Shown here in pieces: positions 9,349 to 27,541 of a stretch of 27,630 nt of DNA. The translations under genes were made by a program, and so were the position numbers. The notes beneath the pieces were generated by a model that did not search any database, had not been told where the DNA came from, and worked only from the letters and a program-made list of their open reading frames with translations. Every line of letters starts with the position of its first letter. Position 1 is the first letter of the stretch. Where the stretch lies: assembly GCA_016839605.1 (NCBI GenBank), contig JAEOTX010000071.1:1-27630 (forward strand), read 5' to 3'. Source of the stretch: Candidatus Thorarchaeota archaeon (GTDB taxonomy: Archaea; Asgardarchaeota; Thorarchaeia; Thorarchaeales; Thorarchaeaceae).

Positions 9349-10548
9349 TTACCATAGCTGGTATTGCCGTTTCACAAAACCTTCCCAGACTCGTGGGAGT
9401 TTCGCGATGACCTCATTAGAGATGCTCTCGACTGAGCCTCTGACCTTGTCTAGGTCACAATCCCCAAAGAGCTCGACGTTGATTGCCTTTGGCTCGGTAA
9501 TAGGTGCGCCAATCTGACTCACGATGTAGCAGTATGCTTGGGTCAAGTCTGGATGTTCAGATACAACCTTCTCGACAATTTCTCGCGCCGCGACGTTATA
9601 CGTTTTACCAACGTGTGAAACGGGGTTCTTCCCTGCAGCAGCTTCGAGGGTCATGGGTCTGTAGGGAGTGATGAGCCCATTGGCTCTATTTCCTCGGCCA
9701 ACCTGACCATCATCACCATGCTCGGCTGATGTGCCAGTCACGGTGAGATAGAACAGGCCTTCTTCAGGACTGTCAGCTGTGTTCACACTCACTTCGACTG
9801 GAATGTCGGTGATTTTTGCTGCAGTGTCTGCAACTAAGCCCTGGATTCCCTCCATGACATTGGCGTACTCGTTGGCATCCTTGGTCTTGGTGGAAATGAT
9901 TGCCGAAGCAACCTGCAGGTGTATCATGTCGCCCACTCTTGTTCCCATAATCTTAACGTCTTCTCCTATCTGGGGCCACTTCTTCTTGGTGTAAGCATGA
10001 TTCAGCAGTTGCTCAGCTTCGAGCACAAGCTGCTCTGTTGGAGAAAGAGGAGCATACCCGACACCAAAGCTAGTATCATTAGCTCTTGGCATTTCGGTCT
10101 CAATATCAAAGTTGCCAACAAGATCAGTGCTTCCTGCTCTAATCTTATAATCAATGATGATGTCTGAATTGACGTCCAAGTTTGGAAGGTCTCCACTAAG
10201 CCACTCTCTCGTGTGTTCAACAGCAAACTTGCCAACTGGAACTTGGCGCTCATAGTCCTTATCAACTACATCAACGGCACGGCCGCTGAGAAGAAGGTAT
10301 ATAGGTTCAATGACATCGCCTCCCCCAAATCGGGCATTGGACTGGCCTCCGACAAGGAGCACCTTATCCACGTTATGATGCTGGACTCTTCCAAAGGTCT
10401 CAAGATAATATTCACTTAGTCTGACAGAGAGTTCCTCTGCCGCTTTATCGCAAAGAGTGTCCGGATGCCCTTTTCCCTTGCGCTCTACTATCTCGACTTT
10501 GCTCTGGGCTACCGGAGTACATTTGCCATGTGTTACTTCGATCTGCAT
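9349..10548 (-). CDS. mat: S-adenosylmethionine synthetase, archaeal type
   Basis: VEIVERKGKGHPDTLCD, HHNVDK, ANDTSFGVGYAP, GEDVKIMG, TSAEHGDDGQVGRGNR, AAGKNPVSHVGK. Confidence 0.96.
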   Translation of the reverse strand: MQIEVTHGKCTPVAQSKVEIVERKGKGHPDTLCDKAAEELSVRLSEYYLETFGRVQHHNVDKVLLVGGQSNARFGGGDVIEPIYLLLSGRAVDVVDKDYERQVPVGKFAVEHTREWLSGDLPNLDVNSDIIIDYKIRAGSTDLVGNFDIETEMPRANDTSFGVGYAPLSPTEQLVLEAEQLLNHAYTKKKWPQIGEDVKIMGTRVGDMIHLQVASAIISTKTKDANEYANVMEGIQGLVADTAAKITDIPVEVSVNTADSPEEGLFYLTVTGTSAEHGDDGQVGRGNRANGLITPYRPMTLEAAAGKNPVSHVGKTYNVAAREIVEKVVSEHPDLTQAYCYIVSQIGAPITEPKAINVELFGDCDLDKVRGSVESISNEVIAKLPRVWEGFVKRQYQLW

Positions 10549-10635
10549 AGTAACTCATCTCAATGTCTTGTTGTTCTCGGCCGCGAACTAGAGTGCATAA
10601 AAGGATTATCATGAATACATATTATCAGTACTACT

Positions 10636-10663
10636 GGTTATTAAGAAAGGTTCTTCAATAACC
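10636..10663. promoter_or_regulatory. Inverted repeat GGTTATT-N14-AATAACC between divergent mat and HTH-CBS genes (candidate operator)
   Basis: Perfect 7-bp arms at 10636-10642 and 10657-10663; inner AAGAA/TTCTT also pair with a 1-nt bulge; adjacent palindrome CAGTA-C-TACTG at 10626-10636. Confidence 0.5.
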
Positions 10664-10664
10664 T

Positions 10665-11288
10665 ATGGTAATTATTCTACTCAGGGTGAAAGACTTGTCT
10701 AATGAGAATACAAAAGGTCCAGAGAGCAATGAGGTACGCAGGCTCATTCAGTTAAGGCTGGAATCCAGACTCACCCAGGCAGAACTGGCAAAGGCAGTCG
10801 GGGTTTCGCAAGCTTACATAGCACGAATTGAGAGAGGGACGCTAGATCCAAAGCTATCAATAGTATCTCGAATAACTGATCACTTAGCAAGCCAGATTGC
10901 CAAACGTCGATATCAAGGACGATTTCACGACATGACTTGTTCGGAAGTGATGACTCCCAACCCAATGACAATCGATGCCAGAGACCCTGCCTCAAGGGCT
11001 GTAGATTTCATGCTTGAGCATAGCTATTCTCAGGTACCAGTTCTGCGAGGCAATAACATTGTGGGAATTCTCACTGAGCGCGATATTATAAAAGATCTAC
11101 ATCATGATCTGAGCCAGATGTCAGTGCAAGCAGTCATGTCGCCTGAATCCCCACCCGTTGTTTCTGAAACCACACTCGTTACCGACGTGGTTCCTCTGTT
11201 TGAAACACACCAAGCCATTCTTGTTCAGAATCAGGGACGTCTGAGTGGCATTATGACACGAGCTGATCTACTCAACCAGCTATCATAA
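10665..11288 (+). CDS. XRE-type HTH transcriptional regulator with tandem CBS domains
   Basis: LTQAELAKAVGVSQAYIARIERG (HTH_3) followed by two CBS repeats (VMTPNP...YSQVPV...VGILTERDI; VMS...SGIMTRADL). The true start may be a downstream GTG or TTG. Confidence 0.9.
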   Translation: MVIILLRVKDLSNENTKGPESNEVRRLIQLRLESRLTQAELAKAVGVSQAYIARIERGTLDPKLSIVSRITDHLASQIAKRRYQGRFHDMTCSEVMTPNPMTIDARDPASRAVDFMLEHSYSQVPVLRGNNIVGILTERDIIKDLHHDLSQMSVQAVMSPESPPVVSETTLVTDVVPLFETHQAILVQNQGRLSGIMTRADLLNQLS

Positions 11289-11369
11289 GAATATCAACGG
11301 AGCATCACGGTGTTACACAGAGAATCAGTTATATACACTCATTCAAAGGCAAACATGGAGACTTGAAAC

Positions 11370-12029
11370 TTGGCTGGTGACGAATTCGAAGCATTTGAAG
11401 ACCTTCGAGATAGTCTTGACACTTTTGTAGAACGATGGTCCAAGATTCAACGAAACTCCGTCAAGTCAATCCAAGCAGTCACTAACACACTTGTCCAGAT
11501 CGAGCATATAGATGGCCCACTTGGAAAACTGGAAACACTCCAGAACATCCGAGACAACGCGCGCGGCAAACTGTTGGTCAATCTCTTTGACAAACTAGTT
11601 CCCGCTCTAGAGACATCCATTAAAGAGTTTACCAAGCTCATGAAGATGTTCGAAACGCTCCGACACAGGACCTCCACACTCCAGACAATAACAGAGTCCC
11701 TCCGTCAAGATGAGCGGAACGACAAGCAACTAGAAGACCTTGTAGGATTTCTGGATCTCATTGTGTTGAGCATCCAAGATATTCTTGATATGTTTGAAGC
11801 TGAATTTTTAGTCAAGATTACAATCTTTCGAGACCTTGAAGAAGGCGCAGTCGAGGTAGGAGTAATCTCCAACTATTTGACAATGTGGAGCGTTGAGCCC
11901 AACATTGAACCTCACGCACTCGAGAAGCTCCTGAAGGATCTTGATGAGCATTTTGACCTTCTGAGGGACATCTTTCTTGGAAAAACTGGGATTCATCTCC
12001 CAGATGTCTATCGAAAGGTATCGTTCTAG
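11370..12029 (+). CDS. All-helical protein resembling eukaryotic CINP / C1orf109 (AIRIM) family
   Basis: Heptad-rich. ILDMFEAEFLVKITIFRDL...NYLTMWSVEPNIE parallels the CINP C-terminus as I recall it (LLEMYRKELLLKRTVAKEL...SYLSMWLHQPYVE). TTG start with GGAG RBS; T8 tract after the stop. The CDS itself is confident; the family call is by eye. Confidence 0.6.
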   Translation: MAGDEFEAFEDLRDSLDTFVERWSKIQRNSVKSIQAVTNTLVQIEHIDGPLGKLETLQNIRDNARGKLLVNLFDKLVPALETSIKEFTKLMKMFETLRHRTSTLQTITESLRQDERNDKQLEDLVGFLDLIVLSIQDILDMFEAEFLVKITIFRDLEEGAVEVGVISNYLTMWSVEPNIEPHALEKLLKDLDEHFDLLRDIFLGKTGIHLPDVYRKVSF

Positions 12030-12030
12030 G

Positions 12031-12038
12031 TTTTTTTT
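12031..12038 (+). terminator. Oligo-T (T8) archaeal-type terminator
   Basis: TTTTTTTT starting 2 nt after the TAG of 11370..12029. Confidence 0.55.
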
Positions 12039-19815: not shown

Positions 19816-20322
19816 TTGGAAGCAATCCTTAATATCGCAAATGAGAAGAGAGGCTTGAGTTCCAGGAGGCGGCGTTTCTTGAGGAGCTACATAATCGAGG
19901 AGCCTGATATCGACCTTTTGCTCAGTCATCTCTCAAAGTATTTCTCCAATACATTCAAGAGAATCAGCCGATATGAGTTGATTCGGTTTGCTGTTTTCAT
20001 TCATAGAATTCCTGCCAAAGACCCAAATACGGACTTCATCAATTTGACTACTGTTGTGGAGTATAATCCTGTTGGTAGAGAGGCATATCTAACTCTTGAA
20101 AGCTCAGGAACCGAAGCTAAAGAAGCAAAATTGGCCGTAGAAATTCTTGGTCCAGCTAATAACAATCAGTGGAATTATAGACGCAATGACAGAACCATTC
20201 AGGACTGCCCCCATTGCAAGGCAACCTACGTCTATAGAATTGATATTAGTCAACAAAATGTGACAACTGTTGTATGTCATAATTGTGCTAGGGAGTTCCA
20301 AGTAACTCAAATCATCAAATGA
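19816..20322 (+). CDS. Hypothetical alpha/beta protein with C-terminal Zn ribbon (paralog of next gene)
   Basis: CPHCKATYVY...CHNC; N-domain EEPDIDLLL..L..YFSNTFKRI resembles the next ORF. Start uncertain. Confidence 0.75.
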   Translation: MEAILNIANEKRGLSSRRRRFLRSYIIEEPDIDLLLSHLSKYFSNTFKRISRYELIRFAVFIHRIPAKDPNTDFINLTTVVEYNPVGREAYLTLESSGTEAKEAKLAVEILGPANNNQWNYRRNDRTIQDCPHCKATYVYRIDISQQNVTTVVCHNCAREFQVTQIIK

Positions 20323-20378
20323 TGTGCTCAGATTTATTTAGTCATGGAGCAATCTGCTTCAAGGAGGGATAATTTCAC

Positions 20379-20837
20379 ATGCAGAGCTTCATGTTGAAGA
20401 ATCCTGACATCGATATACTACTCGAGTTTCTAGAGGAGTCTTATGCAAACAAATTCAAAAGAGTGAAGAAAACTGCCTCGGTAATTTTCGGAGTCTTTCT
20501 CCACGATTCCTTCTTCCAGAGAATGCCCGGGGATTTGACATTGGCAATCGTCTTAGACTATGAGGCAAATGCAAATCTAGCTACAGTTTGGTGCATCGCG
20601 ATGGGCGGTGTTCGAATGGAGGCTAATGCCCAGCAGGCCGCCGAACGTGATTTTATAATTGATGTAGGGAAGATCGCGATTGATCACAACTGGAAAGTCG
20701 AATATGGTCCAGAGAAAATGGCTCTGAAGTGTCCACACTGTAAAGCACAGTATGTGTACCTTGCGGAAGAAGTGAAGGGCAGCTTTGCGGATTCCACAAG
20801 ATGCCAAAACTGCGGTAGGTTGTTTCACCCTGAGTAG
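20379..20837 (+). CDS. DUF6054-like domain plus C-terminal Zn ribbon (paralog of previous gene)
   Basis: KNPDIDILLEFL..SYANKFKRV; GVFLHDSFFQR..LTLAIVLD..VWCIAMGG resembles DUF6054 as recalled; CPHCKAQYVY...CQNC; GGAGG RBS. Confidence 0.75.
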   Translation: MQSFMLKNPDIDILLEFLEESYANKFKRVKKTASVIFGVFLHDSFFQRMPGDLTLAIVLDYEANANLATVWCIAMGGVRMEANAQQAAERDFIIDVGKIAIDHNWKVEYGPEKMALKCPHCKAQYVYLAEEVKGSFADSTRCQNCGRLFHPE

Positions 20838-20918
20838 AGTAATTCTCCTCTATACCTGACGAAGTCTTAAATGCCATCAGAACGCATGTCCCCCCAGAAA
20901 CTCCCCGGAGAGTTTACG

Positions 20919-21980
20919 ATGAGTTCTGAAGCACAAGCAGTGGACGTATTCAAGTGTCCAGTCTGCAGCGGCAACGTCAAGACCGGCCCTGACGATGTCG
21001 TGATAACCTGCACTTACTGCGGTAGCACGACGACAATCGAAGGGAAGGCTATTGGCGACCATCTTATGGAGTCCGGTGTAGATCTTGATGAACGTCTAGA
21101 TGGCTTTCGTAAATTCCTTGACAAGAACAAGGGTATGAACAAGTCCCTAGTTCAAAAGGCTCAAGTCGTCGAAAACAAGCTACTTTTCGTGCCTGTTTGG
21201 ACGGCGAAGGTGAAAGCGGACTCATGGTACAAGGGCTACAAGACCGTGCAGGTTCCAGTCCAGAAAACTAGAACCGTTCGCGACTCAGATGGAAATACCC
21301 GAACTGAGACCTACACGGACTATGAAACAGGCTATGTCCCTGTACAAGATGAGATTCACACTGACACTAATGAGCGATTATTGGCAAGGAAAGGAGCACG
21401 GTTCTATGGACTTGAGGAGTATCTCGAAAAGGTCGACCTCAAAAATACCGAGGCTTATAATTTTGAAAAAATAAAGGATCTACGGTCCTTTGCACATAAT
21501 GAAGAGACTGAACTGACCCTTCTAAACGCAGAGATTGGTGAGGAAGAGTTCGAAAAGACTGTTCATGGTCGAGTAGCTGATCGACATCGATCCCAGGCTG
21601 CGGGCGGACTTTCTGAGCTTTTTGATTGCAGGACCAATACTGAGGTTCGTGGAACTACCTACCTTCAAGCACCTTTTGCTCTGGTTCGATACAAATTCGA
21701 GGGCGACCTCTACAAGGCCGCCTTGGATGGTCATACTGGAAAGGTCGTTTTAGGAGAAATCCCGATCACAAAAGCACAGCGTGCCATGTGGACATTTTTG
21801 GGTCTACTCGGCATTATACTCGCGCTAATTGGTGGACAGTTGGGCTATACAGAAATGATGCTAGCTGAACCATCGACTGCACTCCTAATCGGAGGCATGG
21901 CAGCTGCTGTGGTTGGTTGGATAATGGCAATAGCTGGGTTCCGAGTGTTGATTATGACTCAGCGGGAGAAGACGGGGTGA
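20919..21980 (+). CDS. Zn-ribbon membrane protein (N-terminal CPxC..CxYC, central alpha/beta domain, 2 C-terminal TM helices), paralog A
   Basis: CPVC...CTYCG; FVPVW; PF..RYKFEG..Y...DGHTGKV; two C-terminal TM helices. ATG 20919 after GGAG. Confidence 0.8.
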   Translation: MSSEAQAVDVFKCPVCSGNVKTGPDDVVITCTYCGSTTTIEGKAIGDHLMESGVDLDERLDGFRKFLDKNKGMNKSLVQKAQVVENKLLFVPVWTAKVKADSWYKGYKTVQVPVQKTRTVRDSDGNTRTETYTDYETGYVPVQDEIHTDTNERLLARKGARFYGLEEYLEKVDLKNTEAYNFEKIKDLRSFAHNEETELTLLNAEIGEEEFEKTVHGRVADRHRSQAAGGLSELFDCRTNTEVRGTTYLQAPFALVRYKFEGDLYKAALDGHTGKVVLGEIPITKAQRAMWTFLGLLGIILALIGGQLGYTEMMLAEPSTALLIGGMAAAVVGWIMAIAGFRVLIMTQREKTG

Positions 21981-21985
21981 TCAAA

Positions 21986-22945
21986 ATGGCAAGATGTCCG
22001 TTCTGTGATGCAGACTTTGAAGCTGGTCGTGGAGATGTTCTCCTAGTGTGTCCGTACTGCGGTACAGCGCATACAACTGATGGAGCGAAGTTCACTGACC
22101 ATTATATGATTCGAGTCCATTTTGATCAAGGTGAAGCTCAGACCACCCTACTTGATTGGGTGTCCAAACAGCTGGGCGCACCCGAAGACCTTCCCGCAAA
22201 AGCCCGCTTTTTGAAGTATCAGCAGTACTGGTATCCCTTCTGGATAAGTAGAGTCGACTCCCACTCAACATATCGAGGTCTCGGCAGAGACGCGAACTTC
22301 TATGATGAGTGGCCTCAGAGACGAGGAGCATACAAGCGGATTGACTACTTCTGGAAGCCAGAGTCAGGCCAGTTTACTCGACGACATGAGATCAATATCC
22401 CCGGTATGAAGGATCTGGATGATGATGTCAAGAGGCATCCAATTCCTACAAGGGCGAAGGAGTTCTTCAGCCATGCACACGCTGAGGAATTTGACGGAAA
22501 GGTTATGCATAGTAATATTGGTGAGGATGAAGCTAAAGGCCTTGCAAAGCAGATGGCCTATGATAGGCAGACGAATCTCATCATGTCCGAAGTTGACAAG
22601 ATAGAGGAGCGCGATGACACCAATACTGTAGGTGAAACCTTCCTTGTACATGTCCCTGTTTGGGAATTGGAGTACAAATACGGAAACAGCAAGTACAAAG
22701 CTTCTGTGGCAGCATCTACAGGCTATGTTATCGAGAGCAAGTATCCAAGGTCAATGGCATTTCGTGCTGCAGGATTGGGGTTTGGTCTTTTACTCCTTCT
22801 AGGAGGTGTGGGACTACTAGCAGTAGCACTAGTGCTGGAGATGTTTATTGGTGCTGGCCTTGCTGGTGGAAGCCTGATGGCTTTGCTGGGCTTGATCTTG
22901 ATGTATAAGGGTGCTTCTCGAAAGGAAGCCAAAGAGCAGATTTAG
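21986..22945 (+). CDS. Zn-ribbon membrane protein, paralog B
   Basis: CPFC...CPYCG; WYPFW; VPVW..YKYG..Y....STGYV...YP; two C-terminal TM helices. ATG 21986 after GGGGTGA, 5 nt after the paralog A stop. Confidence 0.8.
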   Translation: MARCPFCDADFEAGRGDVLLVCPYCGTAHTTDGAKFTDHYMIRVHFDQGEAQTTLLDWVSKQLGAPEDLPAKARFLKYQQYWYPFWISRVDSHSTYRGLGRDANFYDEWPQRRGAYKRIDYFWKPESGQFTRRHEINIPGMKDLDDDVKRHPIPTRAKEFFSHAHAEEFDGKVMHSNIGEDEAKGLAKQMAYDRQTNLIMSEVDKIEERDDTNTVGETFLVHVPVWELEYKYGNSKYKASVAASTGYVIESKYPRSMAFRAAGLGFGLLLLLGGVGLLAVALVLEMFIGAGLAGGSLMALLGLILMYKGASRKEAKEQI

Positions 22946-25550: not shown

Positions 25551-26798
25551 ATGTCTAGATTCCTCAAAAGAGACCCACTAAAGAGAGCCAAGAAACACGT
25601 TGAGAAAGCACTGAAGGAATTGGAAGACGGATATCCCGATTATGCTAGCACCGAGTATGAGAAGGCAGCTTGTTTGTTTCTCGAGGAGGGTGAAACCGAT
25701 TTTGCAGTCAAATACTTCAGAGAGGCTGCTTTTTGCTCCTTGGATGCAGAAGATCATTCACGTGGCGCAGATATGAAGATGGAGGCCGCAAACGCACTCC
25801 TCAGAGATAGTAGATTCGATGCGGGCGGTGCACTTCTCTCTGAAGCCTCGGATCACCTCTTTAGGGTGAAGAAACAGAAGAGCTCGCTCAGGGCACTCGC
25901 AGTTGCAATCATATGTTATCTAGCTGCAAGGAGTTTTAGCACCGCAGTGAATCTCGATAGAAAGGCCAAGAAGCGATTCTCTGAATCTTCTGTGAAGGAA
26001 TCTATGTTCAACTTTGCTCAGCTTTCAACCAAAATTCTATGTGAGGGTGCTGCCTCAACGGATCGCGAACTGAGGAAAACGATTAGCGCCGCAAAACCAA
26101 AACCTGTAGAAGAGGAATTAGTAAAGTTCGTGGCAGAGTCAGTGAAGCTAGCTCAGAAGACTGAGGTTCTAATAGAGTGGGCGGGTGCATCTAAAAAAGA
26201 AATCAGTGTCAAATCTCCTGTTGAATTCGAGTTGCGCTACAAATGCCCTGTCCCTGTGAAGGTGGTTGACAGTAGATATTCACTGTCAAAAAGCCTGAAG
26301 TTCACCAAGGAACCAGACATCGAACCGAGACTTGGCAAAGAAGACTCTTGGCTGCTTGAGATTCTCCCTGTTCTAAGCGGTGAGGGATTAGTGGGACCCT
26401 TCAATATGACACTTGAAGGTGAAAGCGTATTGGTGAATAAATTCAGCAATACAATCGAGTTTCATATCGCTCGTGCACCATCGGACTTGAAGATGAATCT
26501 TACACCGGAGCGTTTGTCATGCGGATTGGGTGACGAATCGGTGTTTGACGTTGAGTTTGTAAATGAAGGAGATGGACCTGCAGACAACATCAAGGTCAAG
26601 GTCGAACTATCGGATGGCTTAGAGATATCTTTGGGGAGCACTGAGAAAACTATTCAGTTCATTGGTCCCAGAGAGCGGATGAGATTTCAGGTCTATGTTA
26701 GAGGTGTTTCAATAGGTGATGAGATGGTGACTATCAAAGCTGTCGACAGTAGAGTCGGTGAGGAAATCGTGAAATCATCAGTTGTGAGAGTGGCTTAG
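25551..26798 (+). CDS. SNAP/TPR-like alpha-solenoid fused to two C-terminal Ig-like beta-sandwich domains
   Basis: aa 1-200 contain repeated A..Y.KAA..F, A...F.EAA and AIICYLA helices. aa 205-415 are alternating beta strands (FDVEFVNEGDGPADNIKVKVELSDGL, CARDB/DUF11-like). No signal peptide or TM helix. Confidence 0.7.
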   Translation: MSRFLKRDPLKRAKKHVEKALKELEDGYPDYASTEYEKAACLFLEEGETDFAVKYFREAAFCSLDAEDHSRGADMKMEAANALLRDSRFDAGGALLSEASDHLFRVKKQKSSLRALAVAIICYLAARSFSTAVNLDRKAKKRFSESSVKESMFNFAQLSTKILCEGAASTDRELRKTISAAKPKPVEEELVKFVAESVKLAQKTEVLIEWAGASKKEISVKSPVEFELRYKCPVPVKVVDSRYSLSKSLKFTKEPDIEPRLGKEDSWLLEILPVLSGEGLVGPFNMTLEGESVLVNKFSNTIEFHIARAPSDLKMNLTPERLSCGLGDESVFDVEFVNEGDGPADNIKVKVELSDGLEISLGSTEKTIQFIGPRERMRFQVYVRGVSIGDEMVTIKAVDSRVGEEIVKSSVVRVA

Positions 26799-26803
26799 AA
26801 AAA

Positions 26804-27541
26804 TCATTTACCTTTTCGGCGCTTCTTCTGATTCTCCTGTAGAATGTTTAGACATGCACCCATGAGTTCCTGAATGGTGTCTTGACCTTTGAAGGCTTTG
26901 AGGTGATCATCGGCGTCATCAAGATTGTCGTTGGTCAGAGCTTCTACGAACGAAACGAGCGTTTCAAGCCATTCTCCTCTGGTCTTCTCTATAGCACGAC
27001 GTGCCTTCTCTATTCTATCCTTCGCGTCGGCAGTCTTCTCTATAGTCGCAAATCCCATGGCTGCGAGAGAGAGGTCTATCACAGCGCTCTGAGGCTTTCC
27101 TTCCTCAACTGCTTTTTCCGCAGCCTTATCGTATAGGTTGCCCATGTTCTCAGCACACGTAAGGAAATAGTCGGTATTGCCCAACTTATGACAGGCAAAT
27201 GCAGCCCAGAGATATGCTTGAGCAGCGGTCTCTGTAAGATTCTCCTTGAGGGCATATTCTGCTGCATGCTCGAAGAGTGTTAATGCAGTGTCTAATTCAC
27301 TTACTTGCTTGTACTGAGTAGCTGCCTCGAAGTAACCTGTTGCTGCAGCTCGATTATCATCCGCAGAGACCTTCTCCTCAGCATACATGTGGTAGTATTC
27401 TGCTGCTTTCCGTGTCATCTCGATTACACGGTCGAGATAGCAGCCCGCAGCCTGTTTGTATTGACTGGCTGCCTGGTAGAAATTCTCACCATCTGCGAAC
27501 TCGCCAGCGAGGCGTTCCCACTGTGCACACTCTTCTTCCAT
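26804..27541 (-). CDS. Soluble NSF attachment protein (alpha/gamma-SNAP)-like TPR protein
   Basis: AASQYKQAAGCY and AAATGYFEAATQYKQ...ALTLFEHAAEY..EN....AAQAY resemble the alpha-SNAP repeat as recalled (DAATCFVDAGNAFKK...AI....AIEIY...G....AA); GAGGT RBS; basic tail. Confidence 0.65.
   Translation of the reverse strand: MEEECAQWERLAGEFADGENFYQAASQYKQAAGCYLDRVIEMTRKAAEYYHMYAEEKVSADDNRAAATGYFEAATQYKQVSELDTALTLFEHAAEYALKENLTETAAQAYLWAAFACHKLGNTDYFLTCAENMGNLYDKAAEKAVEEGKPQSAVIDLSLAAMGFATIEKTADAKDRIEKARRAIEKTRGEWLETLVSFVEALTNDNLDDADDHLKAFKGQDTIQELMGACLNILQENQKKRRKGK

Follow-up and report, generated by a model that had tools for sequence, protein, structure and literature searches.

Human CINP and C1orf109 (AIRIM) are subunits of the 55LCC complex (SPATA5-SPATA5L1-C1orf109-CINP), and in plants the corresponding assembly is the OPENER complex; in both lineages these proteins act as cofactors of Cdc48-family ATPases, and plants and animals both possess the two paralogues (PMC12332008). 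Each human protein is monomeric alone. When complexed, C1orf109 binds CINP at helix 4 and loop 4 through its own loop 1 and helices 1-2, and two T-shaped CINP-C1orf109 dimers make a funnel among the six ATPase N-domains. Human 55LCC removes the placeholder RSL24D1, and CINP binds segment 452-474 of GTPBP4. SPATA5 and SPATA5L1 are of eukaryotic origin, archaea having only generic Cdc48 (PMC5070193); how yeast can dispense with CINP and C1orf109 when animals and plants require them has been stated to be an open question (bioRxiv 10.1101/2025.11.07.687187). In archaea, Kostlbacher et al. (bioRxiv 10.1101/2024.07.03.601958; Nat Microbiol 2026, PMC12962969, Fig. 4h) described an Asgard CINP-like protein (CINPL) as a eukaryotic signature protein. 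According to that article, CINP homologues occur in five major Asgard clades and in no other prokaryotes, and in its tree the eukaryotic sequences are monophyletic and adjoin Hodarchaeales. At least in its main text, C1orf109 paralogy, oligomeric state, Cdc48 binding and virus-like copies are not dealt with, and a literature search returned no paper adding a function to the family.

The window analysed here (the whole stretch of 27,630 nt) carries a Thorarchaeial member of this already published family, the existence of which is therefore not new. The initial annotation had taken the gene to encode a eukaryotic signature protein and had cautioned that Asgard surveys might already list it; it was right on both counts (PMC12962969). 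As in the published set, full-length CINP homologues were found in several Asgard clades, Hodarchaeal members included. All matches with a name were Asgard; several had no taxon, and three lay on virus-like contigs. What is added here is the single-copy, family-wise distribution, a putative interface with two faces, the apparent absence of the ribosome docking partners, the lack of linkage to cdc48, and the virus-like homologues. The gene and its candidate signals, the latter read from the DNA letters, are as follows.

11370-12029, plus strand: CINP/C1orf109-like gene, 219-residue helical bundle (ORF, profile, Pfam, structure and codon evidence)
11329-11335, plus strand: TATA-like box TTATATA, putative promoter element
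11357-11360, plus strand: GGAG, possible ribosome-binding site 9 nt 5' of the TTG
12031-12038, plus strand: run of eight T directly after the stop codon, candidate archaeal-type terminator

The reading frame runs for 219 codons without interruption from TTG to TAG. An in-frame ATG lies five codons upstream of the TTG; since a TGA intervenes, the TTG is the likely start. When the gene was compared with those of five close relatives, 84-116 codon changes were synonymous and only 7-28 non-synonymous; this excess, together with 147 close homologues of similar length (mostly Thorarchaeota among those with names), shows that the ORF is a real gene under strong purifying selection. The TTATATA box suggests that it has a promoter of its own.

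Used as a single query, the protein matched CINP at E 0.45 and the Pfam CA109-like model (PF15011) at E 7e-4 (residues 19-152; 19.9 bits, under the gathering cut-off of 27), weak scores that would also fit a generic coiled-coil or helical-bundle likeness without common ancestry. An exhaustive search retrieved 13 distant relatives near full length (22-30% identity), those with names being Asgard. A profile of 25 Asgard members that included such distant relatives matched human CINP with E 4.5e-10 over positions 7-185, W23, M141, E145, K149, Y169, W173 and P177 being common to both, and C1orf109 with E 0.07. With the Thorarchaeial rows removed the profile still matched CINP (E 1.4e-8). The CA109-like model was matched by 23 of these 25 sequences (best E 1.6e-14). 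Ten distant members were compared with its gathering score, and six surpassed it, with 35-55 bits. The C-terminal half alone matched CINP (E 1e-6) and not C1orf109, a point of difference from C1orf109 and PF15011. ESM language-model features gave 0.93-0.94 to eukaryotic CA109-like clusters (oomycetes, plants, arthropods), with plant clusters among the top matches.

The AlphaFold model (mean pLDDT 88) agrees with the all-helical 219-residue protein described in the initial annotation: five long helices, plus a short one in loop 1. In the Foldseek search that the annotation had proposed, all six top matches were CINP or C1orf109 chains, and the model of a second family member reached CINP at E 7.6e-5; an ESM Atlas structure search gave generic bacterial bundles only. 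As the model shows, the protein folds into the same five-helix bundle as CINP and C1orf109. VIA gave a Z-score of 14.6 with CINP (168 residues aligned, 3.0 A); with C1orf109 it was 13.0 (187 aligned, 3.5 A). Since a de novo helical bundle scored in between (13.2), similarity of fold does not by itself decide the matter, and the similar Z of de novo bundles could be cited for a likeness without shared descent. Such a reading is contradicted, however, by the nearly full-length profile match with its shared residues, which effectively refutes it, by the agreement of independent Pfam, Foldseek and language-model results, and by the published phylogeny; its probability is negligible. The protein is homologous to both CINP and C1orf109, as had been proposed, and its profile and structure matches are significant rather than generic coiled-coil hits. 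The motifs noted earlier also lie where expected, with ERWSKIQ at residues 21-27, ILDMFEAEFLVKITIFRDL at 138-156 and, after a spacer of 11 residues, NYLTMWSVEPNIE at 168-180; the human CINP C-terminus that had been cited for comparison agrees with the PDB sequence, in register.

Compared with human CINP (PDB 8CIH, 9GWJ, 8RHN, 9LGO), the archaeal protein has the same five-helix bundle with an N-terminal Trp helix (∼17% identity) and the same C-terminal motif, M-Y-x-x-E...K...Y-L-x-x-W-x-x-x-P in the human protein. It differs in that its loop 1 is ordered, conserved and of the C1orf109 type, while the disordered N-terminal tail of CINP is missing and there is no paralogue to pair with. With human C1orf109, PF15011 and plant OPNR it shares the fold over residues 1-197. 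Members of family f30 and of one Thorarchaeial genus are longer, at 244-256 residues (P0133; L051); in P0133, ∼40 extra residues separate helix 2 from helix 3.

Among 400 Asgard genomes, 132 gave a match, four of them weak and partial, leaving 128 carriers. Presence was nearly all-or-none by family: 79 of 85 genomes in the family of the query, 21 of 22 in a family of Hodarchaeales, and 17/19, 5/5 and 2/2 in three further families. Families of 135, 31, 14, 12 and 12 genomes had practically no genuine match. The weak matches seen in non-carrier families (G019, G142, G238, G266 and G128) turned out to be partial coiled-coil alignments within longer frames. Save for fragments and one doubtful duplicate, the gene is single-copy in carriers, and a second family member that could serve as a heterodimer paralogue was found neither in the present genome (80% complete) nor, as a rule, in other carriers. 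Because it is single-copy and similar to both paralogues, the archaeal gene is quite probably the counterpart of eukaryotic CINP and C1orf109 together, predating their duplication; the occurrence of both paralogues in plants as well as animals and the monophyly of the eukaryotic sequences in the published tree are in keeping with this.

Two segments seem to correspond to the two surfaces of the human heterodimer:

11496-11573, plus strand: residues 43-68 (from the last part of helix 1 through loop 1 into helix 2), putative counterpart of the C1orf109 face in contact with CINP (Pfam, register and conservation; residue mapping partly provisional)
11790-11909, plus strand: residues 141-180, signature M-F/Y-E-x-E...K...Y-L-T-x-W-x-x-E-P, putative counterpart of the CINP helix 4/loop 4 surface to which C1orf109 binds (profile and conservation)

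The human interface is formed by L162, S181, Y182, S184, M185, H188, P190 and Y191 of CINP and by Q48, L63, L69, R72, L73, K76 and Q77 of C1orf109. In the profile alignment the CINP residues correspond, in that order, to V148, N168, Y169, T171, M172, V175, P177 and N178. The C1orf109 residues Q48, L63, F66, L69, R72, L73, K76 and Q77 presumably correspond to Q43, L54, L57, I60, N63, A64, K67 and L68; this partly provisional mapping was pinned by residues named in papers and agrees with the alignment register. The position of L57 is occupied by Phe in 14 of 17 sequences. The 16 mapped positions are more conserved in Asgard members than random ones (mean 2.5 versus 1.1, p 0.001), a comparison in which buried positions would score as conserved too; each half taken separately gave p about 0.02, the C1orf109 half being mapped in part provisionally. 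Human CINP loop 1 aligns poorly to the Asgard profile. Judging from the alignments, a single archaeal protein seems to keep both halves of the human interface, a hint that head-to-tail self-assembly came before the duplication. The monomeric state of human CINP and of human C1orf109 alone speaks against this. On balance, we favour the idea that the Asgard protein self-associates in this way: loop 1 of one copy would bind the helix 4/loop 4 face of its neighbour, and one gene could then build the funnel that humans assemble from two heterodimers. The ancestor, with both faces, would have self-associated, and each eukaryotic paralogue would have retained one face.

By analogy with 55LCC and OPENER, the function proposed for such an assembly is that of an adaptor funnel, with the differences that SPATA5-type ATPases are not reported in archaea, that no Rlp24-type substrate was found, and that there is one archaeal adaptor gene as against two or three. 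The protein may accordingly be a self-associating helical adaptor of a generic Cdc48 unfoldase, a proposal made tentatively; its funnel could perhaps sit on the N-domains of the archaeal Cdc48 hexamer and feed it substrates. The present genome encodes two full-length Cdc48 proteins with N-domains (G000 contigs C196 and C135), and Cdc48 was present in 28 of 28 Asgard genomes tested. A quick tree of 62 Cdc48 proteins from 29 Asgard genomes showed several paralogue classes in which carriers and non-carriers were mixed, and none confined to carrier lineages; because of this mixing, the adaptor role rests on the animal and plant analogy. Nearly every carrier family yielded an EF1-beta-linked class of Cdc48, and the member of that class on C196 would be the likeliest partner. 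As large Asgard families have the same class without the CINP-like gene, the protein is not a core part of Cdc48. A complex prediction with two copies and the C196 N-domain scored 0.01; it was run without controls and is evidence neither way.

No cdc48 was found near the CINP-like gene in 51 loci examined, and this absence of linkage to, or co-distribution with, any Cdc48 paralogue is in keeping with a different view, in which a true homologue acts independently of Cdc48 as a helical scaffold for some other partner and was recruited to AFG2/SPATA5 only in eukaryotes. The patchy distribution of the gene, the eukaryotic origin of SPATA5 and SPATA5L1, and the fact that yeast Drg1 operates without such adaptors point the same way. 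Against it, the characterised animal and plant relatives act with Cdc48-family ATPases, and with Cdc48 in all tested genomes co-distribution would not be expected to reveal a link. A Cdc48-independent role is a real possibility, if somewhat short of an even chance. The single archaeal protein and one Cdc48 make up a minimal system open to in vitro reconstitution, in which one could ask whether the adaptor funnel is older than SPATA5 and the removal of ribosomal placeholders.

Several features of the Asgard cdc48 loci were recorded. The universal Asgard Cdc48 class (L033:2051-4246 and related loci) often has a gene identified by eye as EF1-beta-like just before it and a conserved gene for 86-100 residues after it; in Thorarchaeia, a FEN1-like gene diverges nearby. 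On contig C135 (L034:400-4233), the second cdc48 is preceded by a gene for a 143-residue small heat-shock protein-like product, and the product of a divergent gene at this locus has an AN1-like zinc finger at its start. Genes for comparable zinc fingers lie beside cdc48 in other Asgard genomes as well; in eukaryotes, AN1 proteins serve as cofactors of p97.

A role in large-subunit maturation, with Cdc48 recruited to the archaeal pre-50S particle for placeholder removal much as 55LCC acts on RSL24D1, would match the function common to humans and plants (PMC12332008), and NOG1 and eL24 homologues are indeed present in Asgard genomes. However, eL24 was single-copy in 44 of 45 genomes, and none of the 30 copies read has an Rlp24-like tail (they end 54-81 residues after the first cysteine). 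The GTPBP4 docking segment seems to be lacking, Asgard NOG1 frames being at most 416 residues long and so too short to hold positions 452-474. Both eL24 and NOG1 are equally present in lineages without the CINP-like protein, and no co-distribution of the gene with an eL24 form or with NOG1 was seen. The protein is moreover acidic (pI 4.8, net charge -14), a poor fit for rRNA contact. As judged from these sequences the human ribosome docking partners look absent in Asgard archaea, the substrate is probably not a ribosomal placeholder of the Rlp24 type, and this role is improbable.

Three divergent homologues (P0134, P0171 and P0172) were found on separate contigs in Logan assemblies:

L162, 2736-3344 (SRR29324603): virus-like CINP-like gene
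L164, 1984-2592 (SRR11241200): virus-like CINP-like gene
L165, 796-1392 (SRR14116363): virus-like CINP-like gene

They are 45-57% identical to one another, match the Thorarchaeial profile with 99% probability, and group in a clade whose long branch attaches on the Thorarchaeial side (support 95/91). Their contigs (2.6-3.4 kb, 31-37% GC) consist of tightly packed small ORFs on the same strand, without annotation; several of these ORFs are common to the contigs, none matches the present genome, and the weak matches obtained were to zinc ribbons and a nucleoside deoxyribosyltransferase. No hallmark gene or larger contig for the clade was found in IMG/VR, JGI metagenomes, GenBank phages, PHROGs, BFVD or the 400 Asgard genomes. 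The contigs have the look of viral or mobile-element DNA in which a eukaryotic signature protein is encoded, and a viral origin of the copies, still unproven, is fairly likely. If confirmed, it would hint that the CINP-like protein controls something worth hijacking. The boldest version of the whole scheme, in which copies of the Asgard protein, joined head to tail in a closed homo-oligomer (a tetramer being the simplest case), and the homohexameric Cdc48 beneath them were the two-gene ancestor of the four-gene 55LCC, with direct eukaryotic descendants, and a copy was captured by a virus or mobile element, possibly redirecting the host unfoldase, is speculative and on present evidence unlikely. 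Further work should be directed at the putative two-faced interface and at the virus-like copies.

Gene neighbourhoods are conserved within lineages only and wholly different between them. In Thorarchaeia the neighbours are metK, a gene for an HTH-CBS regulator and that for TrpRS; elsewhere they are phosphosugar mutases, HypF, Lsm or a cluster of ribosomal proteins. A divergent Hodarchaeales neighbour of Cdc48-like size (714-730 residues) was discarded, its N-terminus resembling a signal peptide and not a Cdc48 N-domain. Immediately upstream of the CINP-like gene in the window lies:

10665-11288, plus strand: HTH-CBS regulator gene, a usual but not obligatory Thorarchaeial neighbour

This neighbour is replaced in three loci (L016, L019 and L024) and absent in other lineages, and probably has no functional link to the CINP-like gene. 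Together with the SAM synthetase gene it forms a divergent pair (9349-11288), kept in most Thorarchaeial loci; the 116-bp spacer contains a perfect 7-bp inverted repeat (10636-10642 and 10657-10663, 14-nt gap), and the regulator is possibly SAM-responsive. Elsewhere in the window, two adjoining minus-strand genes (25551-27541) show weak SNAP/TPR similarity (245 residues, E 1e-5; 415 residues, E 0.08), the longer product having a DUF11-like region at its C-terminus. Beside the TrpRS gene, two tandem pairs of zinc-ribbon paralogues (168/152 and 369/342 residues) occupy 19816-22945 on the plus strand, the larger pair having hydrophobic segments at the C-terminus.
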